Shown: positions 31,808-55,871, counted from the first letter of the stretch. The stretch is 63,523 bases of DNA from a virus (IMGVR_UViG_3300046167_000749:1-63523), one strand, 5' to 3'. Program-made: numbers and translations. The notes: a model not told the origin generated them from the letters alone.

Positions 31808-34800
31808 ATAACGATCCTAGTAATTCTCATGTTGATTGGTACCGCAGATGGTCAAAGTCGCAAGGTAAGAATGTTGACAATTACACTAATGAAGAGTTAA
31901 CAAACTTTCTTGGTCAGCAGTATGAAAGGAATGGATTTTCCAATGATGAAATCTCTTCTAGCTATGGTAGTGACTTTTCTAATGCATATTTAGATATTAA
32001 AAATAGACCCGATCCAAATCAGGGTTACTTAGATGAATTTTCCTCGGGCATCAAAAGTGCTAGTTATGGATTAGCTAGTACGGGGGTAGGTGCGCTTGGA
32101 TTAGGAGCAGGGGCATTAGGTTTAGACGGGGTTGAAGAATCCCTTATGGGTAAAGCGGCAGACCTATCTGAAAAAGCGGGTCAGGATAAGCCGACCATAG
32201 AGCGTGCAAGTGATGTGCGATGGAGTAATCCGGCAGAGGTTGCAAGGTTTCTTGCTGGGGGCATGGGTGAAGCTACACCATCTGTAGTTGAGTCCGCGGG
32301 AGCATACTTAGCAGGTGGAGGAATAGGATACGGAATAGCAAAGCAACAAGCTAAAAAAGCTATAAGTAAAACTATAGGAGAAAGGTTAGAAGGAAGTGCA
32401 GGAGATGCAGTAGAAGCCTTAATGAGAGAGAGTGTTAAAGCAAATGCCCGAAAAGGTTTTGCCACAGGTTCATTAACAGCAACTGCAGTATCCTCTATTG
32501 GATTAGGGCAGGGTGAGATTTACACATCATTATACGAAAACACTAAACTTGATCCTGATGATAAAGACTACATTGATCCAACAAGGGCAAAGAGTATTGC
32601 CGTTACCTTTGGAGCAGCTTCAGGTGGATTAGATTTTATTGGTGCAGCCACACTACTTGGAAAACTAACAGGAGCACCTAAGGAAGTTGCTAAAAAGTAC
32701 TACAAAAGATTGCTACTTGGATTACCCGAAGGTGTATTTCTTGAGGGTGGTACAGAGGCAACGCAGGAGTTTATAAACATTGCGGCTGAAAAGTTTGGAA
32801 GAGGGCAGGAGCTAGAATTTGACGGACAAGAGTTAAGTAGATTATTTGACGCAGGCGTGCTTGGTGCTGTAGGTGGTGCTCAATTTACAACTATTGGAGC
32901 TATCCGTGGGCCAAAAGATACAGCCGATAATAATGTTGATACAGACGCACCTGTATCTGAAGATCCGACTACATTTAAGCAAAAGAATTTACTTGAGGAC
33001 ATTCAGGAAAAGCGTGGTGAAGATGCACGGTTCCAGCCTGGAGATACTGTGCAAATTGCATTGGGTGGTAAAGGTGTTGTTGATCGAGTAGTTGGTGATA
33101 GTGCAGTCGTAAAAATGGAAGACGGAACACTCAAAACAAATGTTCCTATAGCTTCCTTGTCTTCTCCTATTGAGCAAGATGATCAAGTTGCATCAACTCC
33201 CGAGGCTCCCGAGGATTCAGATGACGAAGAGAGTAACACGAATACTTATGTCACTCCAAGTGGCAAGACGGTACCTAAGCCCACTGCTAGTGTTCCAGTA
33301 ATTGATATTACCATAAATGGTAAAAAGGTAGAAAAGGTTAACGAGAAAGCGGGCAGGGATGCAGAGTTGTTATTCAAGAAAATGGAAGCTCTTGCCAAAA
33401 TTGATGGGGTTGATGGCATGTCCCAAAATACTGCACGAGCAAATAAGACAGGTGGATTTGCAAGTAACTCTAGGGAGCAAATTAAATTAGCTCTTGGTGA
33501 GGATGCTGGATTATATCGAGCTGAAACAAAAGCCATTCTTCGTAAGGCAGGGGTTCTTAATAGTAGTCATGAGTGGATATTGGGCACGAAGTTAGATAAT
33601 GATTTTGATTTAAAGGAAGCTGAAAGGGTCAAGAAGGAGAGGCTTGAGCAATCAAATAAGACGGATTGGATCGAGGTTAATAATAATGTAGAGATCAAAA
33701 GATCAGGCGGGAAAGTAGGTGTGATAAAAGAAATCACATCTGAGGGCATGATTGCTGTGCAAGATGCATCCGGGCAAATAACTGAGTACGAGCCTAATCA
33801 ACTTAAGCCCAAAGCCACACCAAAGGTTAAGCCAAAAGTAAATAAAGAGTTAAGCGATTTATGGAATGAGCGTCAGTCAGATGACTTTTGGGGAGCTAGT
33901 AGTGTTACACAAGAATCAGAAGAAGTACTAACAGAGCCTGAGTTTTTATTTACTAAAGAGAAAGATGAGGAAACAGGGCAGGTTACTTTCGTAGCTAAAG
34001 ACAATTTTGAGTTTAATAAAGATACCAAGGTAAAATTGCTTTGGACGACGGGTAAAAATAAAAAGCAAAGCAAAGAGGTTTCAGCAACTAGCGTAGATGA
34101 ATTATCTAACTCTGTTCGGGATTTCATGAAAGCAAAGCTTAAGACCCAACATGGGGAAAAGTTTGCTAGTACCTTTTTACGGAGTTGAGATAAATGGAAA
34201 AACATACAACGCAAGTATCGAAAAAGGGTTTTACGACATTGCGGGATTAGAGATTGATAGCTCTCAAAGACAGGAACTTGATGCGCAAAAAGGAGATATA
34301 CCATTTCCTATATCGACTATAGAAATCGATGAGGAATCAGGAGATCTCGGAAAAGGAATAGATTCAGAATCAAGAGCACAGGGGAATGCTTTAAAAGAGA
34401 ATATGACTAGGGATGCTAGCACTCTAGTGACCTTGGTTCTTAGGCAACGAAATAACAATGACAACAAGTACCCGCATGACAGTATTCGAGTGGTTACAGC
34501 ACGACTAGGTAGATCGGGTAACCTGACTGTTATAAAAGCCTATAACTCTGATTCGGGAAAGTACATAAGGATAAATGGCACACCTGGTAAAAATACTACA
34601 GCTGACACATTTAATAATGGCAGGGGTTCTTATTATGAAATCATTGGTAAGATAACATCTACAAGTAAGGTTGGTGATGTAGATTTATTCTTTGAAAACA
34701 TAGAAGATTTTTTAGGAAACGAAACGATTTCCAAGGCACTAGAAAATGAAGAGGTAAAAGAAGAAACGGCTAAAGGCACTAAGTTGTCCAAGGAAGCCAA

Positions 34801-37800
34801 AGCTGCGCAAGAAGAGTTAGAAAAACTAGAAGCTGAGCGCGATGAGCTTGACTCAGAAATAGAGGAAAAAAGCAGGCCAGATGACTTTGATCTCCAATTT
34901 GCAAAAGACCGCGTTGAACAGGATAACGATGATGGGTTCATCGAGGGTGACTGGGGAGATGGAGATGAAACCAAGAACACAAGTAGGGCGAAAGATTATT
35001 TATTTTTTGTAGATTTCTCATCAACGGAGAAGGTACTTGAGACCATACCTCCTATGACCGCTCCTGAGGGTGAGTCGGAAGCAATGCGACTTAGGTCTTT
35101 GATCTCAGCATTCGGTCTTGAGTGGACGGGAGGCAGTACAGTTAAGGAAAAGGGTAGTGCTGACCCAAAGAAAATTGCAAGTGCAATGCGTACGATATTT
35201 TCTGAGATAATCAGAGGCGAGGTATCAACGCTCAGAAAGGGAAATAATGCAATTAGACCAGAGCATATTCAGTCGTTTGCTGCTGTGTATATGGAAAACT
35301 TTGAAGCGGGCAAGGATAAGGTACCAACTGCTGCTGTCCCAAGGAAAGCCCATAAGTTTTTAAAGCAGATAGCAGAGATGCAGTCTCCTGATAAGCAAAT
35401 ACAGGAAGTAGCTCAGGATCTTGCCAATGACAGAGTCAGGGAACTAAATGATAAGCGTAGGGAATTATCTCAAAAAATTACAAAACAAAAAGAGGTAGTT
35501 AAGTCATACACTGAAGCAACTATTTCAGAAAAAGATCTTAAAGAATTAGTTGAGTTTAGGAATCGACTTGCCGAACAAGTTGATAAAGGAGAGAAAACGG
35601 CAGACGAAGCAGATAAAATTTATAATGATAAGTATACAAGGGTTATGCCTTTATCCGCTCAACAGCAACCAGGGCAGAAAAATACTCTTGGTGGTAATGC
35701 CCTTGAGATGATCAATAATGATCAGAGAGATGAAAAGGAAGACTTTGTAGATCAAACATTAGAAGATGCGATAGAGGGCGGTGATAGTTCTGAAGTTCAA
35801 GTTAAGGCTGGGAAAGATTCTGTTGCCACTGGTACTACAATAGAGACAGACGAACTTGGTAATAAAGTTGAAGTTCAAGCTGAAGACAAGGGTGATCTAT
35901 CCGATCTTGAGAGCGAAGGTGCGATTAGATTTCAAGACATGTCGCTAGAGGACATGGTCAGCCTAGTTCTTTCCATTAAAAATAAAGCTAGATTTCTGAA
36001 GGTTTTAGAGTCACACATTACTGAAAAAAGAGAGCGAGCTATGGATGGTCGACATGCTGATGTGGTCGATAACTTTATAGCATATCTGTACGAAAGTAAT
36101 GTAGGTAATGCATTCAAAGCTGAGAGGGTAGGTAGTAGTGATTTTATTACTGATTTTTCACAAATAGCGGATGAGAAGAAACTGCCAATGAGGCAGAAAA
36201 TGCAAGAGGTTCTTGAGTTTGCTTCAGATAAAGAACTGATTAGCAAAAAGGGTACAGAGGTAATACGCAAAAGATCTATATATCTTGCGCAGGAAGCGTT
36301 AGCCGGAAATGCAGAGCCATTTCAAATATTCGAGCATGTACTTAATGCAATCGGGCATCATGCAAAATCCGAAGGATACAAAAGATTCTTTAGATTAATG
36401 AATGACTTTGCTGTTACTCCCGTAACTAATGCTAAAAGTTTAGGAATTAAAGATATACTTCCATTGCTCGATCCCGATGGACTATACGATCAAGAGGAGC
36501 TACTTGACGCGTTAAATGAAGTTTATGAGTCGGACTTGAAATTTGAAGAATCGAGTGGAGAACTTCTACTTAGAGATCATTTAAGAAAGCTCGTTAACTC
36601 AAGCTACATTGTAACACAAGAGTCAGCCTCGGCGCTCACTCAATTTCAGGCAAGTAGATTTGATAATGACGGATTAGAGGGTGGGAAGCTAAACTCAGGG
36701 CAACAGCGAATAGATGACTTAGTTGATCCAACAACGGGTGAAGTGACAAAAGACCAAGTGGTAGTAGTAAGTGAGGCTACAAATACAGAGTCTATACAGA
36801 ATGCCAGATCAGCCAAGCAGTCGTATATGTCGGGACCAGATAACCCATTACTCGCTCATCCTGAATTAGTCGAGGAGGGCAGGTCAGCCATGAATGAGTT
36901 TGCCCCCTATGGTATGGATGTGTCATTCGCATTAACAACTGCACTAAATCAGATAAAAAACTCCAAGCTAGGAACAATAGCAAATGTAGCACGATTGTTA
37001 GACAATTCTGTACTGCAAGACTTTACCATTGAGTTCATGTCATGGGACAATTTCCGAAAATATGCCTCCCCTGAAAAAGGAATATTAAACAAGGCGGTTA
37101 TTCTTCATGAGGAAAAAAGAATTATTATATCTGAGGCATTTAATAATTCATACAAGCATTCAGCAAAAGATATGCTTGCGGCCGATATATTACACGAAGC
37201 AGTTCATGCTGTAACACGACCAGCATTAGACCTTGGATTTGCATACTCATCAGGCAGACAGGATTTAATTAATGACATGATCGAGCAACATGGATTGCCC
37301 GAAAAGTACAACATGAATGCTGAGGCATTAGGCAAGGTATGGAATGACATTAGTAATACACTCCTCCCCTACCTTCGAGAGAAAGGAAAGAGCTTAGATA
37401 ATTTTTATGGCTTATCCTCAATTGATGAGTTTTTCTCCGAGCTAGCAAGTGACTCTAAGTTTCAACAGTTCTTGGCAAATACAGAACTGCCCAAGTCAAT
37501 GCGTCCACCAAAATCTAAACTTCGCACAGTATTAGATTATATATTTAATTTGTTAGCTAGGTTAGGTTTTAATACTGCACGCACACCAGATGCATTAACA
37601 TATGCACGAGGAGAGCTTGCGAAATTAACTGAAATAGCAAACCAATCTACCGAATTATCTGAAGAAATAGCTGCGGCTAACTTACGAAACATATCGACAT
37701 TAGCGGCAACATTTAAGAAAACTGACATCAACCTAGATTATTATGATTTACTTGAACGAATTTCACAGGAAACAGCACGAGACGGCACAGGAGGTACTCT

Positions 37801-40800
37801 CGAAGATGCCGCGAGTCACCTTAGAGGAAGCACGTCAGCAAGAGAAGATGATACGGGGAGCAAAATCATCTCGTCGGAAAGGAAAAGGGAGCAAGACGCA
37901 GAAGTCCTCAAGTACGCAGAAGAAAACGGACTCTTAATAAATAACAAAGAGTTTCAGGAAAAACATAAAAAGTATTACGAAAAACAATATGGAATCGGTC
38001 AGTTCCCCGACAGAGATGGTCTCGCAGGTGGATCTGAAAGTGATATATATGTAGACGAAGAGTCCCAAAGGGTGTTCAAGAGAAACACTCTTTCGATCCA
38101 TGGCGGGGATACGGTCGCGTACCTCAATAGGTTAATCATACATAATCTCCTGTTCCCCACGACTGCGTATAAGTTAGAAGGTTTTGTATCTAGGGATACA
38201 GCAAACGCTGACTTAACCGAGGTTTATCAAAGTGTTAATGTAGTTGTATCTCAGCCATACATAAAAGGTGTTAAGGTAACTGAAGATGAAATTGCAAATC
38301 ACATTGCCAGCCTTGGAATAATTCCACGCTTCGACTCCACGCTTGGTAATGACATCAATTTGTCAGACTTAAGGCCAGACAATGCAATAAAGGATGCGGA
38401 TGGCAACATCCACATCATTGATCCGATTATTGAGCAAGAAAGTAGCATGGTAAAGATCCTTGAGGCCAAGCTCGATAAACTAGATGACCCTGGCGACATA
38501 TTGGATACAATCTTTGATTTGTACAATATTCCTGGTTATGTACCCGGTGCTGACATAAAGTTATTAAAGCGTTCGGCTGAAGATGAACTGGGAATAACAG
38601 GGGAAGAGTTAGGCATGAATGCACCCATGAACGCAGTAATGGGTGGTGGCACAGTCCAAGGGAATCAGTTCAAAAACCCAACATCGAACGACTCACCTAG
38701 ACCAGCAAATGCTAGACCTGACGATAATGCATTGGTCATGGCAGAGGCAAATGCGGCGGGATTTAATGAGTTAATAAAAGAACTAGTCAAGGTTCATCGA
38801 GTCTATGGTGAAGAGCTAGGCATGGAACTAGATGAGTTCTTGGAGACATACGGAAAACCGGGAACTACTAGAATAGCAGACATCAAACAACTGCTTGATA
38901 AAGAACTTGCACAGCACGACAAGTCAACTGATGGCATAACCTTAGATAATGCTGGATTAAATAAGATTGCTCGCAGTTGGGGTGTGCGTAAGGCAATAAT
39001 GAACCTTGAGAAGGTTCGTGAAAGAGCACGTAAGGAAGGTAGCCGATCAACAATTCTAGTAGAGGGCATTGAGCAAGATGTTGTTGATAGCAGAAATATA
39101 TATGCCGACCTCTTGCAAGGTAAGTTCCCAACAAGAGATAAGTTATCAGCAAGGGTTAAGAGCAGGTTATCCAATACCAAACTTGAAATACTTGAGGAGT
39201 ATGTAAAGGCGTTACCCAACTCAGGCTTCTCACAAGAGAATTTAAATAACATAAGGAACATGGGTGAAGAGCAACTCATGGGTGTGTTAGATGCAGTAGT
39301 TGATGCAGTAGATCAGAGGGGTAATGGTGAGATCGAGCTTAACTCAAAAGAAGAATTTAATAAACTTTTAGAAACTCTGACCGATGATAGGCTTAAGGTA
39401 ATACAAGGGGATAACCTTAATAAGAAAGCATTAAGGTATGCCGTGTTACGTACAATCAGAGAAAGTAAAGATGTCATGGCTATCCTTCGGTTAAGCAAAG
39501 GGAAGATAGGCACTACTGAAGAAAAATTTAAAGATGCAGCAACTGCAATAGCTAGGGCAAAGTCCAAGGAAGAGATTGATAGAGTAGATATAAAATTCCC
39601 AGGTACTTTATCAACTCCACTCAAACATTTCGCTACTCTTAAAGAGAGAGAGCTTGAGAGTATGGCTAAGTTGCAAAGAGAAAAAGCACGCCAAGAGGTC
39701 AATGGTAAGATCAATAGTATGCTTGAGAATAGAAGCATCAGATTGCGCATGGCGTTAGGTGAATTACAGCCAGTGAATATTTATGATGGTGTAACACTAA
39801 TAACCATGAAGAAGGTTAATGGTGAGTGGGAGCGATCAAACTATAAGGTAGAGATCAAGAACGGTAAGTTCATGGATCGAGATGGATTTGCTAAAGCAAA
39901 TAAAGATACCCTTATGTTTGTCCGAGATCCCGACATGATTAAAAAACATGGACACGAACCTTGGTTCGAGATCATGAGGGAGCAGGCACTAATGGCACTT
40001 ACTGAGCCAATCATGGAAGAGCAGTTCCACATTCAGCGTGCCGCATGGTATGCTGGACTGCAAGGTCTCACCGAAAGGTTTGCAAAGTTAGGTTACGAAG
40101 GAAAGAAGCTATCTCAAATGTCAACTGCTACAGTGGCAACCTACCGGAACTACGCAAGTCAATCGCAAGCATACGCTAAACAATTCAATGCATCCCTTCA
40201 TAGGGTGATGAGTAAACTTAAACTAGGTGGCAATGAAATCTACACGGGTTTATACCAAGACATTTTTTGGTGGTTTGATAATCACCCTGAGTATGCAGGC
40301 AAGGAAGAGGAAGGGTTTAAGCAATTGTGGAAGCACCTAAAGTCTAACGCAAATATACCCGATAGATCATTATTAGACGATGATGCCCGTAGGCTAATTA
40401 TCGATATGGTCAATAAAGCACTTACTGCTAGAGATTGGGAGGCAGAGGTAAATAAAAGGTTAAATAATAGAATACGCGACGAAGATGTTCAAGTTGAGTC
40501 ATTCGTCAATGGCGAGATGGTGGATCTGTATAGACTGCCAATGGATATGGGGTATGCGACATTGCCCAGAAGCCTTAATAATGGATATATTCGTGATACA
40601 TATGCCTTAATGAAAAAGGCTAATTGGCACGGGGATGAAGTAAAAGGTCTATTGGATGAGGCTAGGCAATTAAAGACGCCCGAAGGAATGGAAGATATCT
40701 ATAAGGCGTTATTTAATGATCAAATAGTTGAGCGTTTTGTGAAGCCCTACACCAACTCAGATGTAAGGCAGAGTATATTTCGTGGTCCTAAAGATTCAGA

Positions 40801-43429
40801 GGGAGATATGTTGCCAATGGGTAACTCTTTTGTTGCTACTGCGTTTGAAAGAAGTGGTGGAGATATGTACGCTATGGCTGAATATATTTTCAATCAGCTT
40901 TCAGAAAACACATCGGAGTCAGCACGGGTTCAATGGCAGTATGCCTTCCTGAATCAATTCTTCAAAAGGTTTAGAGAATTAGAAGGTACTGCTAAGAAAA
41001 TATCCAACCAAGTGGATGGTATGCAATCGGGTGATAGCATGAGAAATACACCACAGAGTCTGGATGCACGGGGTGTCGATAATAGACTACCAAAAGAGTT
41101 CTTTTCGTATAATATGTACGATGAAGTTTCATCCAATATTAGGTTGGCACTTATGTCTGCAACCTCTCATTTCGGGAGGAATGGAGATACTGCAAATGCT
41201 GCATTTAGAGATGGCAAACAAACACTAGGCGAAGCGGCTGAGACATTTAATGCAATAATGGCAGAGGCTACTAATAGTGACCACAACAAACCGCAGCACC
41301 ACTACTCTCGATCCGTTAAGCGCAAAGCATATGACATTATGCGAAGGAGAGGCTCAACCAATGCTGAAAAAGAATGGAATGAGCTGTATAGCAAGTCAAT
41401 TGCTAGGGGCGAAATGGATGTAGCTTTTGATCATCTTGGTAAATATTACGGAAAGGGGAATGTGGCGGGACCATATCAAGATGCAAACCTGCTCATGGAT
41501 ATTCTTGGTGTGCAGTCAATGTCTGTATTGAATAACCCTAAGTCATCATTTTTCCAGGCATTATCATTATTCGAGTATCCCAATGCGTTCAGGGGTTTAA
41601 ATAAAATAGCGGGTAAAGCAACAGTAAGTGCTCTTGGTAATTTTGTTGACCAAACATTTGGTGGCATGCTTGAGGCAATGGGTGTTGAGTTAGGCAAAAC
41701 AAGTCGATATGCACAGTACTTAAATGAGACTCACTTTAATCTCAAGGAGATGCAACTTCCCTTCAGTGAGTACAACTCAATGATTGGATCGGGAGGAGAC
41801 CTAGCTGAATCAATTAAGAATCATCCGCAACTAGGGATGAAAAAGTACATTAGGTATATTAAAAATCTCTCAACCCACCACAAGCAGTATAGAAAAGATG
41901 GGACTAGGGCACCTATTGACCCCTTGTCATTGATAACTGGAATCTTTCCGTATGTAAATAATGTGGTGAACCACTCAGTTGGAGTTGGGGCAATACACAC
42001 CTATAGTGACCTAGTGTTACAAGCATCAAAAGTAATACAAGAAAGAGGACTTACTGAGTACACTGAGCTTTCAGCTAAAGATTTAGGCATGGGCAACAAG
42101 ATGGGGGAGTGGATCATTGGTGAAGAAGATGGTTACATAAGAGCGAATGAAATGCTAATTAACTCAGGAGCACCATCAGTATCTCGTTTAGCTTTTGATT
42201 ATTTAGATCGCAAGAAAACAGACAAGCAGGCGCTACCTATTGATGAGAGAATGGGCTTACTGATCAATCAGGCGGCAATGAATAATGTATCGGGTGAGGG
42301 TTTTAACTCTAAGCCATCTGCACTATACACAAATGATTTCCTAAAATACTTCAGCACCTTTTTAGGTTGGCCTCTAGGTAAAATGTCAAGAGACCTAGAC
42401 CAAATCTTTCGTGATCCAAGTGATCGGATCGGAACGATGCGTGCGCTAATGAAGTACATAGGTATGATGTCAGCAGTATATGTTCCGACCGGTCTTTCAT
42501 TTGCAATGCTAATAGATTGGTACGATGAGGAGATGTTAGAAAAGCCTAATAATTTACCTCCTATTTCTCCTTGGGCAGCTCTTCCAGTAATTGGTCCATT
42601 CATCGCGGCTGATGACCCCAACTTCACAGTGTATGCAATCACATCAAGGATGGCTAAAGCAGGTGTACCATTTGGCATGGGTATGGATCTCGCCAATGGG
42701 CTTTTTGCAAAAGGAGACCCCTTCGGTGCGGCTAGAGAGATATCCCTCGATAGTAGGATTTTTGCGTGGTCAATGTTTAAAAATATTTACGATGCCATGG
42801 GAACTTGGGCAACTGCAGGCGAGTTCGATTGGCAAATGGTAGGGAGACCTATCGCCTACGGGGTAGGGGGTAACTCTGTTATACAGATGATGGATCTCAC
42901 GAGTGCTTTATTTGATATAGACTCAGAAGAAAGAAGGGTAGCCAACTACATTGGAATGCGTAATCATATCAAGAAAACTGCATTCTTAATGGGACTTCCA
43001 TTGAGACCCCCCCGTAAAGGTGGGGGAGTGCAGACAGGGGTGTCTATTAATACTAGGCAGATGGCACGCGCCGCGTTTGCTGGAGATAGTGAGTCATTCT
43101 TAGCAAACTACCAAGAAGCATTGGACGCAGCGAAGATATACCTTGATGAAAGAGGTCGCGATGATGACCCTGCGAAGTATGTAGCTGATGCATTTAAAGA
43201 TAGAGCTATTCAAGGCAACATCACTCAAGGAACAATGAAGGATGCTGACTGGCAGAACCTTTTAAATATTCTCGATCCTGAAGTTAAGGGTCAAATTCAA
43301 CAAGCTATTGCTTCTCACGAACACTACTTGAGATTAATTGGTGGCACTCCAAAAGTGTCTCGAGAGAAATCAAATCGTGCAAGGCTAGAAGAGGCACGGC
43401 GATCAAGCGCCCTAATGTATATCCAATAA
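31804..43429 (+). CDS. Giant polyvalent internal virion protein (~3,870 aa if joined at T5 run ~34174-34178) with zincin metallopeptidase-like and Ser/Thr kinase-like domains
   Basis: ORFs 31804-34188 and 34151-43429. N-terminal glycine zippers and EGGTEATQE (ejection-protein motif). ILHEAVHA...DEFFSE zincin. GGSESDIY...VFKRN...HNLLFPTTAYKLEGF...SQPYIKG...DLRPDNAI...IIDP polyvalent-protein kinase. Confidence 0.75.
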
Positions 43430-44380: not shown

Positions 44381-44503
44381 CACACCCATATTATTATAAA
44401 TCACGATGAGGGTTTACATTTAACCCTATACACAGAAGTGGAAGATCCTGATTTATCTGAGATTATTGAAGAAATAATAATAGAGAATTTAAATTATGCC
44501 TAA
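44378..44503 (+). CDS. Small acidic ORF (41 aa; not in ORF track)
   Basis: MHTHIIINHDEGLHLTLYTEVEDPDLSEIIEEIIIENLNYA directly after the promoter; overlaps the next start. Confidence 0.4.
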   Translation: MHTHIIINHDEGLHLTLYTEVEDPDLSEIIEEIIIENLNYA

Positions 44504-44741
44504 AAAAGGATATAGAAGCTCAACGGCTAGTACTCGCAGTAAGTACCAAAGAAAGTACAATACAAAGCCTGAGCAGGTCAAAAGAAGATCTAACCGAAAC
44601 AAAGCGCGTAGAAAGTTAAAATGTCCTGCTGGAAAAGATGTACACCACAAAGATGGGAACCCGCTAAATAATAAAAGATCTAACCTTGCATGCTCTTCAG
44701 TTAAAAGCAATCGAAGCAAGAATAGGAAAAAGAAAAAATGA
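44496..44741 (+). CDS. Small HNH endonuclease-like protein
   Basis: DVHHKDGNPLNNKRSNL...NRSKN. Confidence 0.8.
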   Translation: MPKKGYRSSTASTRSKYQRKYNTKPEQVKRRSNRNKARRKLKCPAGKDVHHKDGNPLNNKRSNLACSSVKSNRSKNRKKKK

Positions 44742-48204: not shown

Positions 48205-50865
48205 CTATATTGTTAAGTCTTCCATTTCTGACAGTAATTCACTTACTGCATCTTGATCGTGCTTTGTAATTCCAAGCTCCTCGGTGCGCGTGATAGTTAA
48301 GAACCTCTCCTTGAGCGGTGCCCACTGTGCGAGAACCTCAGCTTCATGCGACTCGATGCCCTTCTCTAGCTTATCCCATCCGGTGACATGCTCGGCAAGA
48401 ACCTCCATCGCATCAGTTGATCTTACCTCACGAGGTACTCGCTTACCATGAAGGCAGATAGTGGCAGCATCTTCCTTGGTTCCAACCTTATCGAACATCA
48501 ACTCTTCGATGCTGTTCTTGTGAAGAACGACATATACATTGACATCCTCTGGTGAATTGAGTCGGAATACACGACCCAGTGCTTGGTTGAACTTGCCGTA
48601 AGACCATTCGAGTGAGCCTACGATAAGGTTCTTGCATTGCTCAAATGAATAGGCTTGAGCACAATTGATACTGAATAGCATAACTTGTGTCTTACCGTCC
48701 TTGAACTTAGATGCCTCAAGAGCGTGATCGGACATAGTGCCATCAATCCTACTGTATTTAACGCCCCCCTCGGCAAGTCTTTCCTGTAACTCATTGGTCA
48801 TACCTTGACGAGCAGACACATGGATTACTTGTTCACCCTTAGCTAAGTGCTTGTACATGATCTCAAGTATTGCAACAGTCTTAGGGTTGAAGTTAGTCTT
48901 GCTGTGCAGATTGTACTCAGCATCGAATGGATTAGCTGCGATACCACGAAGGTATGATAACTGAATACCATAACGAAACTTAGGATCTTTGCATGGTACA
49001 TTGCCAGGGTTCATGTAGTGGGTGTAGTTCTCGCGTTGCTGGTATGTCATCGGCACACGAATGTCCATGATGTTGGACTTCACGAGATCAGGGTTGCATT
49101 GAGCCTTACTGATGAAGGCAACGGTAGGACGAAGCAACTTGAGTAGCTTTGCTGGCTGACTGATCACAGGTGAATGCTTGAGTGATGTGGGACCACGACC
49201 ACCATTCTTTCTCTTGATCATCTCTAGGGTGAGGTCACGCTCATTGGTAACAAACTCACGCTTGAAGTCAGCAATCTCATCACGCTTGTACGGCCAACGA
49301 GGGTTGCAACGATCACCGAAGTACCAATTAGGCACAGATAACCAACCCATAAGGGAGAAGATATTCCATACCATATTTGGTATCGGTGTAGCACTAAGAG
49401 CAAACTTGTACTTAGGTTGCATCTTGATGATCGAGTTGGTGATCTGAGAGTCAAGATTACAGATAAGATGAGCCTCATCGAGGATTACCATATCCCAAAA
49501 CTTGTGACCAATCTCGGTAGCCAAGCATGGCTCAGATATACATGTGATTGCGTGCTTCTCACCTGTTGGTGCACCTTTGTCTCTGATGTCAATGACTTGA
49601 GTGTGACCAATATTCATGTGGTAGCATTCGTTATCTCTCGTATGCTTGAGGGTATTGCCATTAGCATCAAGCAACTCATTGCCCTCGGCATCGAGTTGCT
49701 TGGTGTATAAGTCAGGCACAGGAATCTTGATCTGCTTGAGATGCTTGCGATACAATGCTTCAGGGTCTTTCTTCTTGCCTGCCCATGTATTGGGTAGACG
49801 CTCAAAGCCGTTGCGAAACATGACATGATCATAGGTAAGGAATACACCGAATGGTAACTCACCATTGTTCTCCTTGAGTAACTTCTCGTGATCCTTCCTG
49901 CCGAATATCTTGTGAACAGGAATAGTAGGTGCAAACTTCTTGAACTCCTTGACCCATTGGGATGGGCTAGTTGCTTCGCCTGCCTTGGTCTTACCATCCT
50001 TGACTGTACCCTTGGGAGCACAGATCAGAACACGACTGCACTGCTTAAGTAGCACCAAGCATATGGCGATAAGAGTTTTGCCCACACCCGTCTCGGCTGC
50101 GATCTGAGCAGACTCAGCACATGCAGCTTGTGCGATATACTCATTCTGACCGGGATAGAACTTGAACTTGCCTTGCACCTCCATGAACTTAAGTACCTTG
50201 AGTGCTCGCTCGAACTGATCTTTTGTCTCATCAGCTAGTGTAGGGATATCGGGTTCAGCGAAGTACTCCCATAGTAATGACTCGTCAAGGTCAGTCTGAA
50301 GGGTAGGGTGATCCCTGAAGTTGAGAGTCCAACCCCTGTCATCTTGGAATGTTAACGCCAAGTCAGAACCTTCGAGTGACATCTGATGCACCTTGGATGA
50401 CACGGATCGCGAATCCTCATCGTAGTGCATTTTAGTACGAGTGAATGGCTCGCGGTACTGCATCCTGCGAGAGCGGAAAGCATATCGCTCACCAGATGTA
50501 AGCTGAAGGTGAACAGGATCTCCATTCTTGGTGTGACTAACTACATCATCTACATTTTTAATGCAGATCAATTCCTTACGCTCATCTACATAAGCTACTT
50601 TCTCGTAGGATGTAGGTGGACGCAATGGACGTGCAATTTTCTTGGATGAAACAAGAGCAGTATCAATTAATTCCTTGGCATCGGGTGAGATGAGGCACTT
50701 CTTGTGTGATACTAATTTCTGAAGTCTTTGGCGGTCGCTAAGAGAGATGACCAAGCTCATGGGTGTGCGAGCATCAACCAACTCAAGATCGAGCTTAATG
50801 TCGGAAGGTGCGTATTCAGGAAAGGTGCGGAGTTTACCGTCCCTCTCGGATATGTCGTACATCAT
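48205..50865 (-). CDS. SNF2-family (SF2) helicase/translocase
   Basis: AAETGVGKT (I), ILDEAH (II), LSATP (III), RIDG, QALGRVFRL (VI), SIEE. Confidence 0.9.
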   Translation of the reverse strand: MMYDISERDGKLRTFPEYAPSDIKLDLELVDARTPMSLVISLSDRQRLQKLVSHKKCLISPDAKELIDTALVSSKKIARPLRPPTSYEKVAYVDERKELICIKNVDDVVSHTKNGDPVHLQLTSGERYAFRSRRMQYREPFTRTKMHYDEDSRSVSSKVHQMSLEGSDLALTFQDDRGWTLNFRDHPTLQTDLDESLLWEYFAEPDIPTLADETKDQFERALKVLKFMEVQGKFKFYPGQNEYIAQAACAESAQIAAETGVGKTLIAICLVLLKQCSRVLICAPKGTVKDGKTKAGEATSPSQWVKEFKKFAPTIPVHKIFGRKDHEKLLKENNGELPFGVFLTYDHVMFRNGFERLPNTWAGKKKDPEALYRKHLKQIKIPVPDLYTKQLDAEGNELLDANGNTLKHTRDNECYHMNIGHTQVIDIRDKGAPTGEKHAITCISEPCLATEIGHKFWDMVILDEAHLICNLDSQITNSIIKMQPKYKFALSATPIPNMVWNIFSLMGWLSVPNWYFGDRCNPRWPYKRDEIADFKREFVTNERDLTLEMIKRKNGGRGPTSLKHSPVISQPAKLLKLLRPTVAFISKAQCNPDLVKSNIMDIRVPMTYQQRENYTHYMNPGNVPCKDPKFRYGIQLSYLRGIAANPFDAEYNLHSKTNFNPKTVAILEIMYKHLAKGEQVIHVSARQGMTNELQERLAEGGVKYSRIDGTMSDHALEASKFKDGKTQVMLFSINCAQAYSFEQCKNLIVGSLEWSYGKFNQALGRVFRLNSPEDVNVYVVLHKNSIEELMFDKVGTKEDAATICLHGKRVPREVRSTDAMEVLAEHVTGWDKLEKGIESHEAEVLAQWAPLKERFLTITRTEELGITKHDQDAVSELLSEMEDLTI

Positions 50866-51023
50866 TATTTATATTGTATTTTAATTATTATTGCTTCTAT
50901 TCCTTTTGTTATTAAATGAGCTACTGCTTTGGTAGCGTCATTGTGTGTGTATAGTAATGTCTCTTGTGTAGAGGTATCGCATAAGCAATATCCCATACTA
51001 GAGACAAGGTATCGTGTGGTCAT
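50865..51023 (-). CDS. Small hypothetical protein (52 aa; not in ORF track)
   Basis: MTTRYLVSSMGYCLCDTST...IQYK; coupled at both ends (ATGA/TAATG). Confidence 0.45.
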   Translation of the reverse strand: MTTRYLVSSMGYCLCDTSTQETLLYTHNDATKAVAHLITKGIEAIIIKIQYK

Positions 51024-51352
51024 AAATATCTAAAAAAGTCTTTGATGTGCTTACTAATGTGGCGCCCACTCCAAGGGCTCTTACCTTGCTTTAGGTGCTT
51101 AATGAAATCTCGAATAAGTGCAGCTTGCTCGTAATCTTCATACTTAATTGCTTTCTGCATACCTTTCTCGTAGCGGTTGACTTCAGCGGCTTGGGACTTA
51201 CGTTTCCACTCATCCATATACTCCTTTAGTGTCATGCCTTTGAGTGAAGCTAAGTATGTGAAGTGTTTATTGTTTGCTTCTACGAGTCTCTTGCGTGACT
51301 TAATTGGATCGTATCCTTGACTTGGCATAATTATATTTTTACCGGGTTGCAT
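51020..51352 (-). CDS. UVR (UvrB/UvrC-motif) coiled-coil protein
   Basis: MQKAIKYEDYEQAALIRDFIKHL matches the UVR motif consensus. Confidence 0.7.
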   Translation of the reverse strand: MQPGKNIIMPSQGYDPIKSRKRLVEANNKHFTYLASLKGMTLKEYMDEWKRKSQAAEVNRYEKGMQKAIKYEDYEQAALIRDFIKHLKQGKSPWSGRHISKHIKDFFRYL

Positions 51353-52005
51353 ATTCCTTCATCTGTATCAAAGAATACGCCCCGAACCTTTAGGCTCTCC
51401 CACCTCAGCAGGCGCCAAATAAGGTTCAGGGCGTTTATAGCAACCACACTATTAACAAATAGATCTTGCACGAAGTATTCATCTACGCATCCAACCTCAC
51501 CTACCGGTTCCTCTCCGTAGATCAAGTCGTTGTGCTCGTCATATACATTAGGTAAGTCTCCGTCGAATTGACCGATCAAGACTTGTCCTGATGTGCGTGA
51601 ATTGCCACAATCAATCATGTAGGCTCCCTTAGTAAGCCATGACTTAGCTATATCTTCACGAGACTTAATAGTATCTACGCACGAAACAATCATATCATCT
51701 TTTGATGATGAAGGTGCTTTTACTGTGCGATACTTCCAGTTTAGTTGGTAGTACGCATTTACTCTATCGATCAGAATCTTGGCTTTATTGTGGCCAACAT
51801 CTGATGGGAAGAATGCCTGCCTGCCAATATTAGCAGGAGATACCGTGTCAAAGTCATAAGCTGTGACATATATCTCAGGCTTCCTTCTTTGTTTTTGAGC
51901 ATGATTAATACGGGCAAGTCCATTAATCATCTGACTGCCTGTACCACCACACCCATATACGGATATGTTTCTTATATTTTTCTTTAATCTATGCATTGTA
52001 TCCAT
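51331..52005 (-). CDS. PRTRC system ThiF/E1-like activating enzyme
   Basis: GCGGTGSQ, LARINHA, DFDTVSPANIGRQ.F..SDVG.NKA, SCVD, DCGN..SGQV, and C...QDLFVN. Confidence 0.9.
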   Translation of the reverse strand: MDTMHRLKKNIRNISVYGCGGTGSQMINGLARINHAQKQRRKPEIYVTAYDFDTVSPANIGRQAFFPSDVGHNKAKILIDRVNAYYQLNWKYRTVKAPSSSKDDMIVSCVDTIKSREDIAKSWLTKGAYMIDCGNSRTSGQVLIGQFDGDLPNVYDEHNDLIYGEEPVGEVGCVDEYFVQDLFVNSVVAINALNLIWRLLRWESLKVRGVFFDTDEGICNPVKI

Positions 52006-52607
52006 TCTGTAAGTGTTTTGTTAATTTCCTTAAGGTGGTTGCGCCTCTTGGGTTGGTAGTTAAATCCGCTATTGAAGAATGTTCTCTCCCACTCCTCCCA
52101 ACAATGCCAGGGAAGTGAGTATGCGAACTCAGGATTGTTTAGTGTTACATTGCATGATCCCATTGCAGATGAACCTCCATGCACATCAATACTTCGATAG
52201 GGCAACTCTAGTAGCTTTGTTGAATCTGCGGAGTATGAATCAGTATTCGACCGATCAAAGTCAATCGGCAGGACAGCAACACTAAGCGTGTCATGCCCGT
52301 GACTTCTTGTTACTTTGAATACTAGATGTGGATGACTGTAAACCCCTACCTTATTCTTAACTTTAATTGGTCGTCGAGCGGGTTTGCATGTCCATATCAT
52401 GCACAAGTTTTCTTCATACCATAGCATCTGTGGTGGCAAGACTATCGGTTCTGATGCTTGCCCTTCTACTAGATCCTTCATATCTTCAGATGATAATGGT
52501 CGTGGGTTTACCCATTCCTCATCTTTCTTATCGAATAGTACGCACATCGATCTACTTCTATCTCGGTAAACCATTATGCTTTGCTTCGCTTCAATTAAGT
52601 CTGTCAT
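51984..52607 (-). CDS. PRTRC system protein B (prokaryotic E2 family D-like)
   Basis: PRPLS; LPPQMLW...MIW..KPARRPI; PHLVFKV; TKL..LPY; AMGS; WERTFFNSGF; adjacent to ThiF. Confidence 0.75.
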   Translation of the reverse strand: MTDLIEAKQSIMVYRDRSRSMCVLFDKKDEEWVNPRPLSSEDMKDLVEGQASEPIVLPPQMLWYEENLCMIWTCKPARRPIKVKNKVGVYSHPHLVFKVTRSHGHDTLSVAVLPIDFDRSNTDSYSADSTKLLELPYRSIDVHGGSSAMGSCNVTLNNPEFAYSLPWHCWEEWERTFFNSGFNYQPKRRNHLKEINKTLTEWIQCID

Positions 52608-53541
52608 GTGATAAGTATTTTAATAGTCTCGCGAACGGTCCAACTGAGTACAGAGTGTCCTCAATTTCCGTCGCGTTGTGACATGGAGGTATACAGGTTG
52701 AGTATAAGTGTTCCTGTTGGTAGATAATCATGTCATCCAGCACCATCCATGTTGGATCTGATGCTTGACCCATGTCGGGATTACCCTCAAGTACCTCGAG
52801 CCTGTGTTGCGCATCGTATTGCTGTTGGCACACGAACATCTCCATTGTCTTGTTGAGCATAGGCTCAAACCCATACCAAGAGCATGTTGCGATTGGCCAA
52901 TACCCAACCTCTTCACCTTCAGATGTAGCAGCAAGAAAGCTTTGAGATAAAGCTCGCGGTAGGCAGTCCTCGATTAGTTTAGATAGGTTGTAGGGTAAAC
53001 CTTTTGGAACCTCGCTGAACACTTTATGTTTATGTGCAAAGCTAGGAAGTAGACCAGTGCGTCGTTTCTTTTTATCTTTATCACCAACCCTGCCTAGGTG
53101 TTCATACATATCGACTAGATACTCATCGATATATTCAGGTGTCATTATCCATGCCGGACTACGTGACAATAGATCGATTAGCTCGGAGCCTATGCCGTGG
53201 TACTTTTCGAGTAGCTCTAGTCGAGGACCAATTGCAAACTGACTTCCATCATTAAACGTATTGGCTACAGGTATAATACTGCCATCATATAATTGAGCAT
53301 CTTCAATTAGCACACTGAATATTCCATCAGTATAAGATTTAAACAGATCGGTTAGTCTCTGATCTTTTACGCAATTATTTGTGTTCTCATATCGTAGGCC
53401 AGTGTCGCGTACAACTTTGATAGACTGAGGTAATGCCCATGGTGTTTCTAAAACAGGGGTGGGCAGGCACGGGGAGTAAACCTCCCCGTACCTTTTGTTT
53501 GTTTCAGCCTTAACCCTATTTGGGATGAGAATTTCAAGCAT
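52591..53541 (-). CDS. PRTRC system protein F-like
   Basis: Lies between Ubl and B; IGPRLELLEK..G.G...L...WIMTP pattern. Confidence 0.55.
   Translation of the reverse strand: MLEILIPNRVKAETNKRYGEVYSPCLPTPVLETPWALPQSIKVVRDTGLRYENTNNCVKDQRLTDLFKSYTDGIFSVLIEDAQLYDGSIIPVANTFNDGSQFAIGPRLELLEKYHGIGSELIDLLSRSPAWIMTPEYIDEYLVDMYEHLGRVGDKDKKKRRTGLLPSFAHKHKVFSEVPKGLPYNLSKLIEDCLPRALSQSFLAATSEGEEVGYWPIATCSWYGFEPMLNKTMEMFVCQQQYDAQHRLEVLEGNPDMGQASDPTWMVLDDMIIYQQEHLYSTCIPPCHNATEIEDTLYSVGPFARLLKYLSHDRLN
53466..53492. terminator. Strong hairpin just downstream of the Ubl gene
   Basis: Minus strand GGTACGGGGAG-GTTTA-CTCCCCGTGCC (11 bp with one GU); T-rich tail on the + side. Confidence 0.4.
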
Positions 53542-53547
53542 CTTCCC

Positions 53548-53760
53548 TTAACCTTTAGTACCGTATGATCCTTCGATTTTATAGACTTCTTCACCTTTGG
53601 ATATTGTCGGGCTAGAGATTTCTCCCTTGGTTAGTGATGGATACTGTCGTGAGTAATGCCTTACCACCTCTTCAGGTGTCATGTTCCTCCCTGGATCTTC
53701 AAGTGTTCGTTCGCCGAATTTGAATATTCTAGGTAATGGTTTCATTCCTTCATCTGTCAT
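53548..53760 (-). CDS. PRTRC system protein C (prokaryotic ubiquitin-like protein)
   Basis: RIFKFG..LEDP...MTPEEVV.HYS.QYPSL...ending GTKG-stop. Confidence 0.88.
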   Translation of the reverse strand: MTDEGMKPLPRIFKFGERTLEDPGRNMTPEEVVRHYSRQYPSLTKGEISSPTISKGEEVYKIEGSYGTKG

Positions 53761-54056
53761 TAATTAAACTCCTTTTCTACTGATTGTTGTAATGCTTCTT
53801 GTTCGTGTGACTCTAATTTATCCCACCAATGGGGAACTTTATCCGTATTGGATGGATTGAGTCTTTGCTCAGGATACTCAACCGTGCCATTTGTGCCGTC
53901 TCCACCCACTGGTGTGGGACTGGTGGATTCATTTACAAAAGCCCATAGCTTTGAGTATAGTGATCGATGTTGTGTATCCGTAAGGAATTGCTTGTAAGGT
54001 AAGCATTCAGCTACCTCATCAGCCGTCCAACGTGATATTCTTTCTGGATAACTCAT
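53760..54056 (-). CDS. Hypothetical protein inserted in the PRTRC operon
   Basis: 98-aa ORF, TAATG-coupled to the Ubl gene. Confidence 0.65.
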   Translation of the reverse strand: MSYPERISRWTADEVAECLPYKQFLTDTQHRSLYSKLWAFVNESTSPTPVGGDGTNGTVEYPEQRLNPSNTDKVPHWWDKLESHEQEALQQSVEKEFN

Positions 54057-54285
54057 GTTTTCTCCTTTGTTTCTTTTGTCGATTGCGCATTAATTTAAGC
54101 ACGATGAGTGATTCCTCATTGGTCATACGATTGCGTAGGTGCGTTGGTATGTCCGTGATAGTTAGAACTCCTCGTAGGCTAGTCGGGCATTGATCTAATA
54201 GATCAACGACCTCGTAACCCAAAGAGATTATGTCTCCAATCTTCATTGGCTCACCGCCAGTGAATCCCGTCGTTGTGTTACTCAC
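54019..54285 (-). CDS. Hypothetical protein inserted in the PRTRC operon
   Basis: 88-aa ORF overlapping both neighbours. Confidence 0.55.
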   Translation of the reverse strand: MSNTTTGFTGGEPMKIGDIISLGYEVVDLLDQCPTSLRGVLTITDIPTHLRNRMTNEESLIVLKLMRNRQKKQRRKHELSRKNITLDG

Positions 54286-54866
54286 AGATCAATGCTACCT
54301 AGTCCTAACCCTAGTGGATCATCGCCGTCAGGTTTATCTTCTGCTGATTTCTCATTCAGCCTGTCGACAATCTTAGGTTGCTTGGTGACATTTGATACAT
54401 CAGGGGTGATTTCAGTATCAAGTCGATTAGCTTCCTCTGCGGGTGGCTTCTCATCCTTGCGTTCCTCGGCTTGCTTGGCACGAGCAGCTTCACGCTTCTC
54501 GGCTTCAAGTTGTGCTTTAGTCTTACGCTTCGGAGCAGGCTTCTTGCCTGTAGCTTTCGCCTTGAGTTCCTTGGTCAAAGCATCAGACTCGAGCTTCATC
54601 TGTTTGGCAATATTCACCATACTCGTTGTACCCTCAGACATGACATGTACATACAAGAGTATATCCTTAACAACTTTCTCGTTAGTAAGGTTATCCTTAT
54701 TGTATCTTTGCATGTATCGCTGTTCGAGCACACCCTTGGTTTTATCAGACACCTTGGTATCCGCATTGTACTCAGGGAATACATAAACCCATATGTCATC
54801 ACCATCTAGCTCTAGGTCTAGCTTGAGTTTGTGTGTAGCAAGTAGTGGAATCAGTTGTTCAATCAT
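54282..54866 (-). CDS. PRTRC system protein E-like
   Basis: MIEQLIPLL...LKLDL..DGDDIWVYVFP head followed by an A/K/P-rich low-complexity tail; upstream of C. Confidence 0.65.
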   Translation of the reverse strand: MIEQLIPLLATHKLKLDLELDGDDIWVYVFPEYNADTKVSDKTKGVLEQRYMQRYNKDNLTNEKVVKDILLYVHVMSEGTTSMVNIAKQMKLESDALTKELKAKATGKKPAPKRKTKAQLEAEKREAARAKQAEERKDEKPPAEEANRLDTEITPDVSNVTKQPKIVDRLNEKSAEDKPDGDDPLGLGLGSIDL

Positions 54867-55578
54867 TTTTAATTTCTTTTAGTTTCTTATCAATAGTGTC
54901 GTTGACTGCCTTACCCATATTACTGAGTGCAGTGTGCATACCCTTGAGTGCCATAGTTAGCTTCTCGATCTTAGCCTCAGCATTGCTTTTGAACTCGATA
55001 AGCTCGTCGATCTTTTCCTGCAGATCGTTATCGGTAGCAGGACCGACAACGGATCGGGCAATATCCTCGATCGCCTCACGCATCTTAACTATTGGATGAA
55101 CTTCATCCGTGGCAGGCTTAGGCTTAGTGAGAGGCTTGCGAGGCTTGCTCTCTTTCTTGACGATTGCAACACCTTCGGGGTCAGGCTTAGGGGTAGGGGC
55201 AGGTGGTATATTTGGCGTTGGGTCTTGCTCTATGCGAGAAGGCTCAGATGGAGCTGACTCGGCAGGAACTTGATCGAACTCACCATCTTGCAATCGCTTT
55301 ATCCATGCCTCGTATTGCGAGCTTTTGAGATCAAGAAAGAACTTCTTGCGCTCGTCGGGGTCACGAGGTGGATCACCTTTCCATAGTGGATTGGAAGAAC
55401 CATCTGCAAGTGTAGACTTGTTGTATTGTTCGCCTGTCTCATCGCCAACATAGAATGCAATATGAAGGAGCGAAGGGCTCAGTGCTTTGAGTGCTTGATC
55501 TGTGAATCGTGCTTGTACTCCTTGTCCGAACTTAGTGTTACGATCGGTGAGTACTTCCTGTAGTTTTATTTCGTTCAT
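54859..55578 (-). CDS. Hypothetical protein (P-rich linker, C-terminal coiled coil)
   Basis: 239-aa coupled ORF. Confidence 0.65.
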   Translation of the reverse strand: MNEIKLQEVLTDRNTKFGQGVQARFTDQALKALSPSLLHIAFYVGDETGEQYNKSTLADGSSNPLWKGDPPRDPDERKKFFLDLKSSQYEAWIKRLQDGEFDQVPAESAPSEPSRIEQDPTPNIPPAPTPKPDPEGVAIVKKESKPRKPLTKPKPATDEVHPIVKMREAIEDIARSVVGPATDNDLQEKIDELIEFKSNAEAKIEKLTMALKGMHTALSNMGKAVNDTIDKKLKEIKND

Positions 55579-55871
55579 TATTTAGTATAGAATTTTATTA
55601 ATGGTTTAAGTTTTCCTTTGTGTACTTTGTATGCTTGCACCAATCTTTTCCTTTCGACTATTGCCTCCGCGCCAGGTCCTGGATTATCGTGTTCAATGCG
55701 TTGCCTTACATATTCGTCATGGTTTAATTCATCGTTTGATTTTGGTTGGATTGGTATGTTATCTTTTGATCCTCTCATAGAGTCCTTTATCATGTGCTCG
55801 AAGTAAGTGTAATCATCGCTCATCCTCAATAAACTCCTTGAGCTCGGATTTTTTAAATTTAGTAAGTACAT
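55578..55871 (-). CDS. Hypothetical protein
   Basis: ORF coupled to 54859-55578; the start may be the internal Met near 55823. Confidence 0.5.
   Translation of the reverse strand: MYLLNLKNPSSRSLLRMSDDYTYFEHMIKDSMRGSKDNIPIQPKSNDELNHDEYVRQRIEHDNPGPGAEAIVERKRLVQAYKVHKGKLKPLIKFYTK

Follow-up and report, generated by a model that had tools for sequence, protein, structure and literature searches.

The IMG/VR virus record IMGVR_UViG_3300046167_000749 is a linear stretch of 63,523 bp (hereafter the window, meaning the whole of the DNA analysed) with a CheckV completeness of 81%. Its plus-strand arm (~1-44.3 kb) carries tail-fibre and further structural genes, and its minus-strand arm (45-62.6 kb) is an early arm with a tyrosine integrase, an SNF2 helicase and numerous small early genes. 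Within the early arm, positions 51331-54866 hold seven open reading frames (ORFs), all on the minus strand, several of whose predicted products resemble those of the PRTRC cassette (named for its ParB- and ThiF-related proteins; NCBIfam TIGR03734-03742), the ubiquitin-like protein (Ubl) conjugation cassette described by Iyer, Burroughs and Aravind in 2006 as operon type 6d (PMC1779556). The operon of seven genes proposed in the initial annotation is indeed present here, and its adjacent ORFs overlap by 1-38 nt or are separated by a 6-nt gap, which makes translational coupling plausible. On the basis of the tail fibres, integrase and SNF2 helicase in the window, together with the IMG/VR virus record, we take the carrier to be a temperate phage, and sequence comparison supports the presence of a PRTRC-type E1/Ubl/E2 core in its early arm.

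Two sets of sequences served for comparison. First, searches with the family of F316, one of the cassette proteins, identified 16 marine metagenome loci (individual loci are given below as L002, L003 and so forth), in which tblastn with the window proteins revealed a recurring string, g239-E-(x)-Ubl-F-B-E1-s52-SNF2, with an integrase beyond it in five far-reaching loci. Second, we used classical cassettes from a Cupriavidus plasmid (annotated as SNF2 ... ParB-E-C-F-B-A-ThiF), from Ralstonia phage Dina (NC_055026; E-C-F-B-A-ThiF in its RefSeq annotation) and from Burkholderia phage BgVeeders33 (OK665841), whose six proteins (E, C, F, B, A and ThiF) each exceed the NCBIfam cut-off. The order in the window, g239-E194-x88-x98-Ubl-F316-B-E1, is the classical order without protein A between B and E1.

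The E1 (51331..52005, minus strand; 224 aa) scores 177.5 bits against PRTRC_ThiF (TIGR03736; cut-off 144.75), as do, at 187-208 bits, the E1 proteins of all three relatives tested. Pfam ThiF (48.9 bits) likewise places it in the ThiF/MoeB superfamily, and the NCBIfam ThiF and MoeB models themselves give 22-42 bits against cut-offs of 152-377. In an alignment of eight proteins from the phage family with those of Cupriavidus, Dina and BgVeeders33, the residues G18, G20, G21, G23 and S24 of the nucleotide loop (GCGGTGS), R62, D111 and the candidate catalytic C173 (GCVDE) are invariant in all 11 sequences, bearing out an earlier description of a ThiF/E1 with an intact loop and a candidate cysteine in that motif. 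The Ubl, which corresponds to PRTRC protein C (53548..53760, minus strand), is confirmed as a 70-aa protein with a GTKG end (...GSYGTKG-stop, C-terminal Gly70). It matches Pfam Prok_Ub (PF14454) at 59 bits (cut-off 25), a threshold also passed in three of three relatives, and falls just short of PRTRC_C (TIGR03738) at 45.8 bits against a cut-off of 45.95, which the Ubls of L003, L009 and L010 exceed (46.2-57.7 bits). G67, K69 and G70 are invariant in nine of nine aligned sequences, classical C proteins included.

The E2-like protein B (51984..52607, minus strand; 207 aa) matches Pfam Prok-E2_D (PF14460) at 33.7 bits (cut-off 25), as does B in the three relatives scanned (30.7-51.2 bits). Its candidate catalytic C152 is invariant in 9/9 family members together with H92-P93 and P136-Y137, and the gene abuts or overlaps that of E1 in each of the 11 loci with both genes. 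No sequence relatives of E1, B or Ubl were found in the PDB.

The E-like protein E194 (54282..54866, minus strand; 194 aa) occupies the position of E in Dina and the plasmid. Its N-terminal domain is conserved, its middle part is of low complexity and rich in Lys and Glu, and its acidic-hydrophobic tail at the C-terminus (DDPLGL...DL) is invariant. The first 42 residues of the window protein align with PRTRC_E (TIGR03741) at E 0.076 (13 bits; cut-off 37.95), six of eight family members match this model at E <= 1 (best 4.4e-5, all below the cut-off), and the family N-termini align with two classical E proteins over 31 columns (hhalign, E 8.9e-4). Together these matches lend weak support to homology with PRTRC E. 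In the C-terminal motif, DDPLGLGLG.LDL, residues D182-L187, D193 and L194 are invariant in 8/8 relatives; classical E proteins have a comparable short D/L-rich terminal tail, and the motif could act as a docking peptide for another protein.

F316 (52591..53541, minus strand; 316 aa) lies in the slot of PRTRC protein F, between C and B, and is similar in size to F, as in the Dina and plasmid cassettes. It is a candidate adaptor or enzyme from a small family (27 cluster representatives in a set of 1.84 billion proteins). In 12 of 12 members no NCBIfam model, TIGR03742 included, was matched, nor did the window protein match Pfam, where F is the alpha-helical protein PF14456. Profile comparison of 32 F316 sequences with 13 PRTRC F sequences gave a local alignment of 50 columns (hhalign, probability 58.8%, E 9.4e-5), and we regard F316 as probably a very diverged, if unproven, PRTRC F. 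Its divergence fits the remark of Iyer et al. that the helical F protein diverges rapidly (PMC1779556). The AlphaFold2 (AF2) model of F316 is fairly confident (pLDDT 81.2, pTM 0.76); Foldseek searches of the PDB and BFVD with it returned nothing at E <= 0.001, a wide VIA-align search gave a best Z of 2.5, and the ESM Atlas held no usable match. Across the 32 members H288 is invariant and C193, R107 and H312 nearly so. C220 is invariant in 12 close members but variable among the 32, and we therefore dropped the idea that F316 is a cysteine peptidase. The predicted complex of B, Ubl and F316 scored 0.02 against a mark of 0.32, a result that counts neither for nor against an interaction.

Between E194 and the Ubl lie x88 (54019..54285, minus strand, GTG start; 88 aa), which has no family match in NCBIfam, Pfam or PHROGs, and x98 (53760..54056, minus strand; 98 aa), which has none above threshold in the same collections. 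In L003 and L010 the x88 homologue is located away from the cassette, and in L004 and L009 the E-Ubl interval is without it; x98 is found between E and Ubl in L002, L005, L007 and L008 and ~4 kb upstream in L003. Since they are displaced or missing in some relatives, these two ORFs are not core genes. The initial annotation had listed them as two unknowns within the operon, along with an E-like and an F-like gene: the ORFs are present in the window operon, the E and F slots are kept, and the family models give a match below the cut-off for E and none for F.

Protein A and the Ubl tail

Six-frame searches of the whole window at E <= 1 returned no match to Prok-JAB (PF14464), RadC, ParB_N, PRTRC_A (TIGR03735) or PRTRC_D (TIGR03739), confirming that A (the JAB peptidase), ParB and D are not recognizable in the window. 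The PRTRC_A model gave no match in its 14 control genomes and 224 bits on the BgVeeders33 protein A. None of the JAB, RadC, ParB or D families appeared in Pfam scans of the window ORFs or in NCBIfam scans of 62 ORFs, TIGR03734 included, and p146 and p157, compared with RadC from L009 and from L010 in search of a hidden RadC in the window, showed no meaningful similarity to it. The A slot between B and E1 is empty in 11 of 11 loci, and among 99 ORFs from the flanks of four relatives no JAB, RadC or ParB_N was found except two RadC genes, to which we return below. ParB or D is likewise missing next to some classical cassettes: ParB does not adjoin those of Dina or BgVeeders33, and D is not adjacent in either of these or in the Cupriavidus plasmid.

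The absence of A is accompanied by a difference at the end of the Ubl. In the window and in 13/13 loci the Ubl ends YGTKG-stop. Classical C proteins align through the same G-x-K-G and then run on, the Cupriavidus protein for another 8 residues and that of Dina for 59; the BgVeeders33 protein likewise has a tail of ~60 residues, and all three of these cassettes combine protein A with a tailed C. Among the best 120 of 281 matches of a database search with a mixed Ubl profile, a sample skewed to the families that made up the query alignment, each of the 35 YGTKG-type Ubls stops at the Gly, and 82 of the 85 classical-type C proteins (RAAGAKG/RAVGxKG) have 3-68 extra residues. The earlier proposal that the Ubl needs no trimming is thus backed by the co-variation of tail-less Ubls with the absence of A. 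The simplest reading of these sequences is that A matures a tailed Ubl in classical PRTRC and that the phage lineage may have lost A once the Ubl was encoded in its mature form.

Measured against PRTRC as a whole, the window shares an E1 within the equivalog cut-off, a Prok_Ub protein with G-x-K-G, the Prok-E2_D Cys, the E-C-F-B-ThiF order and a nearby SNF2 gene. It differs in lacking A (a JAB with JAB-N), ParB and D, in its tail-less Ubl, in the loss of the E2 His, in its marine phage carrier, and in the divergence of B, E and above all F past the curated models. Dina and BgVeeders33 come closer, being phage-borne with the same gene order, no adjoining ParB and E1 proteins 32-35% identical to that of the window; unlike the window, they keep A, have C tails of ~60 residues and encode six proteins that are all annotated as PRTRC or score above the cut-offs.

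Relatives, constraint and neighbouring genes

With the near-identical L002 set aside, identities between the window proteins and their counterparts are 64-74% for E1, 68-79% for SNF2, 46-75% for the Ubl, 34-46% for B and 28-79% for F, which drops to 28-35% in some relatives. Comparison with L002, 98% identical to the window, gave ratios of non-synonymous to synonymous substitution (dN/dS) that are based on few substitutions, namely 0 for E1 (from 4 synonymous and no non-synonymous changes), 0.10 for E, 0.26 for B and 0.28 for both F and the Ubl. Recurrence in 16 loci and the low dN/dS indicate that the cassette genes are real.

The stretch was found in seawater, marine and estuary metagenomes, with at least half of its sampled words present in 9 of the 20 matching entries, one of which may be the source sample itself. 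No relatives were found in IMG/VR by E1 or F patterns, among phage records by DNA, or in GTDB genomes by F patterns; the E1 patterns retrieved from GTDB one distant E1 (30% identity) in a metagenome-assembled genome of Longimicrobium. Among 50,697 phage records, four (from three phages) give near-full-length tblastn matches to the window E1 (E <= 1e-31), and E1 homologues are encoded in 373 of 72,556 plasmid records. PRTRC cassettes had been described in the initial annotation as known from plasmids and integrative and conjugative elements, a range that proves too narrow, given their presence in Dina and BgVeeders33 and the mention of prophage PRTRC genes in two papers: a 2026 article reports a ParB/ThiF cassette in the B. 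gladioli prophage AB2 with a homologue in BgVeeders33 and terms it a partitioning cassette (PMC13366799), and a 2026 preprint (10.64898/2026.10.01.756045) describes the protein B of a prophage PRTRC as a hotspot of mutation.

Directly upstream of E lies g239 (54859..55578, minus strand; 239 aa), in the slot held by ParB in the plasmid cassette. In this conserved protein a Pro-rich linker joins a globular N-terminus to a C-terminus that is helical. It belongs to no Pfam, NCBIfam, PHROGs or PADLOC family, and has a homologue upstream of E in seven loci. It was considered as a hidden ParB and rejected, as hhalign against the Cupriavidus plasmid PRTRC ParB gave a probability of 0.2%. At the other end, uvr110 (51020..51352, minus strand; 110 aa, Pfam UVR motif at 26.4 bits) overlaps the stop of E1 and is optional: it is present in L008 and absent from L002, which points to a recent gene-sized insertion or deletion right after the cassette. 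It is followed by s52 (50865..51023, minus strand; 52 aa), a protein with a conserved Cys-x-Cys for which no family was found and which has a homologue in the same E1-helicase interval in eight loci. Next comes the SNF2-family helicase (48205..50865, minus strand; 886 aa; SNF2-rel_dom at 62.8 bits plus Helicase_C), which lies downstream of E1/s52 in 10 loci and is 68-79% identical in the nine that are not near-identical to the window. An SNF2-related gene also borders the Cupriavidus plasmid cassette; at 19% identity to the window SNF2, the likeness is at the family level alone.

RNA-seq contigs from three libraries, one of them oligo-dT, match 53113-53366, 53658-54023, 54087-54526 and 55027-55700 at >=99% identity and low depth; they are a weak hint of operon transcription in seawater samples, and DNA carry-over could also explain such low-depth contigs. 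Stretches of the operon without matching contigs carry no information on transcription. Among the relatives, the early arm of L003 encodes a 102-aa protein (L003:3779-4087) that has the helix-turn-helix domain of the DnaA C-terminus (PF08299, 65 bits), which hints at how these phages address a replication origin. A homologue of DpdA, of the 7-deazapurine-in-DNA system (PF23859, 92 bits), lies downstream of SNF2 at L010:13580-14407 (and L011:7836-8663) and has no counterpart in the window. Elsewhere in the window, the structural arm closes with a 3,092-aa ORF (34151-43429, plus strand) that carries Kinase-PolyVal (PF18762, 64.9 bits) at residues 1249-1428 and looks like a 'polyvalent' virion-delivered protein. 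A tail protein (17403-19352, plus strand) contains a sialate-esterase domain (SASA) and weakly resembles Mtd_N (23.7 bits, below the cut-off), and a small HNH endonuclease gene (44496-44741, plus strand) sits between the two arms.

Proposed mechanism and alternatives

We consider it moderately probable that the cassette is a peptidase-less, ParB-less derivative of PRTRC that forms a fixed early-operon core of ~80-kb temperate marine phages and serves to tag a DNA-associated protein. In the mechanism we propose, the E1 would bind ATP and adenylate Gly70 of the beta-grasp Ubl, which would then pass as a thioester from Cys173 of E1 to Cys152 of B and finally be attached to a lysine in one target protein or several, with the fast-evolving F316 and the E-like protein acting as possible specificity or scaffold factors. 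If the essential job of A in classical cassettes is to remove the tail of the C protein, as we infer, then a Ubl translated with its reactive Gly end would make A dispensable and explain its loss, and tagging by a mature Ubl after the loss of A would not be reversible by any enzyme encoded in the cassette. The likely target would be a DNA-associated phage or host protein, modified early in infection or at establishment. A phage-intrinsic role appears likelier than that of an exchangeable anti-defence gene, given that the cassette is syntenic, strongly conserved and linked to SNF2.

Several observations weigh against this account. B reaches only 25.7 bits against PRTRC_B (TIGR03737), whose cut-off is 131.45, and is without the His that follows the Cys in classical proteins (FTHPNH), a residue described as absolutely conserved by Iyer et al. 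(PMC1779556). The AF2 model of B (pLDDT 76) aligns over residues 55-206 with some ten distinct E2 enzymes found within the 50 best-ranking PDB representatives, at Z-scores of 2.7-3.3, a result weakly consistent with an E2 fold. The earlier naming of B as an E2-family-D-like gene is backed by the Prok-E2_D match and the conserved Cys, and not by the PRTRC_B score or the His. F316 matches none of the models of NCBIfam, Pfam, PHROGs and PADLOC. A connection with DNA transactions is suggested by gene neighbourhood alone, and our literature search, which had subscription journals outside its scope, found no work on PRTRC biochemistry, nor any on JAB-less PRTRC. With completeness at 81%, the missing ~19% of the genome could harbour a peptidase or ParB. 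Finally, a RadC-like JAB (PF04002, E ~1e-36) is encoded in two of the four relatives scanned (L009:3903-4334 and L010:11927-12388), at differing positions in the early arm and outside the cassette. The initial annotation had the phage keeping only the activation and conjugation core; this stands for the cassette, in which the A slot is empty in all 11 loci, and is overstated as a claim about the whole genome.

Of the alternatives, counter-defence, in which the phage Ubl tags host defence proteins or jams Bil or CBASS Cap2 immunity, was already raised in the initial annotation and is unlikely in our view. Host immunity based on Ubls is established for Bil and Cap2, and Ubl-to-lysine conjugation has been demonstrated for Bil (PMC11601596). 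The cassette lies in an early arm, and Bil (BilABCD) and Bub resemble the window in encoding the Ubl, E2 and E1 as separate proteins, on DNA that is mobile or linked to defence. Their E1 proteins are larger and multi-domain, however, both operon types encode a peptidase, and both belong to the host and have a known or suspected action against phages, whereas the genes of the window belong to a phage. The Rossmann loop of the E1 weakly matches Cap2-type models (6A-MBL cap2_3, 36 bits against a cut-off of 320), but with the PADLOC Bil, Bub and Cap2 E1-E2 models the match is limited to the nucleotide loop (~80 residues, best E 4.9e-6), and the Ubl, B, F and E proteins matched none of the PADLOC Bil, Bub and CBASS Cap2 models. 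Counter-defence genes are usually variable accessory genes. Here every related locus keeps the position and order of the cassette, E1 ranks with the best-conserved proteins, and counter-defence of the kind used by phages is less obvious for the classical PRTRC in 373 plasmid records. Such a role has no direct support and fits poorly with so strictly conserved, syntenic and constrained a cassette.

We think it quite unlikely, too, that the cassette is not minimal at all, and that a JAB/RadC peptidase or ParB in the missing 19% makes it an ordinary PRTRC split across the genome. The CheckV estimate for this linear record and the RadC-like JABs in the early arms of L009 and L010 leave room for such an arrangement, but RadC is missing from the flanks of the two other relatives and is a common stand-alone phage gene, the A slot is empty in 11/11 loci, the Ubl has no need of processing, and 63.5 kb of window sequence without JAB, RadC or ParB_N, together with only two RadC genes among 99 relative ORFs, argue against it.

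A role for the Ubl as a sulfur carrier, thiocarboxylated like ThiS, MoaD or Urm1 in order to thiolate a nucleic acid or small molecule, is improbable. The pairing of a Rossmann adenylating enzyme of the ThiF/MoeB superfamily with a beta-grasp protein bearing a free C-terminal Gly is indeed that of ThiF-ThiS and MoeB-MoaD, and DpdA, found in the early arm of one relative, is a DNA-modification enzyme. Unlike those systems, however, every cassette includes an E2-like protein with an invariant Cys, the Ubl ends in Lys-Gly rather than Gly-Gly, and no rhodanese, cysteine desulfurase or sulfurtransferase family was found among the window ORFs scanned. That the loss of A, ParB and D marks a decaying remnant on its way to inactivation is very improbable: B and E do fall far below curated cut-offs and F is unrecognizable, but up to 16 loci, with identities down to 28-74%, have all their reading frames intact, the catalytic residues do not vary and dN/dS is well below 1.

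Beyond the favoured reading of a peptidase-less PRTRC derivative that tags a DNA-associated protein, a bolder and rather doubtful version would see the cassette as a self-sufficient, irreversible tagging cascade needed for the early programme of the phage, with F316 as a new E3-like or substrate-selecting enzyme and the PRTRC JAB as a maturation protease. If true, the joint loss of JAB and Ubl tail would mean that in all PRTRC systems the JAB acts as a maturation protease rather than as an eraser. Phage-borne PRTRC cassettes that include a JAB had been annotated before, which makes the advance incremental; what is new is a peptidase-less variant of a known, uncharacterized kind of cassette. 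PRTRC cassettes are widespread and were predicted twenty years ago. The phage family described here represents the smallest natural version, with five or six small genes, a Ubl that has no need of processing and no eraser, which should make in vitro reconstitution and the hunt for targets simpler. The co-variation of peptidase and tail leads to a testable statement on protein A in all PRTRC systems, and the cassette adds a virus-side case to a picture in which bacterial Ubl systems are mainly regarded as host defences.

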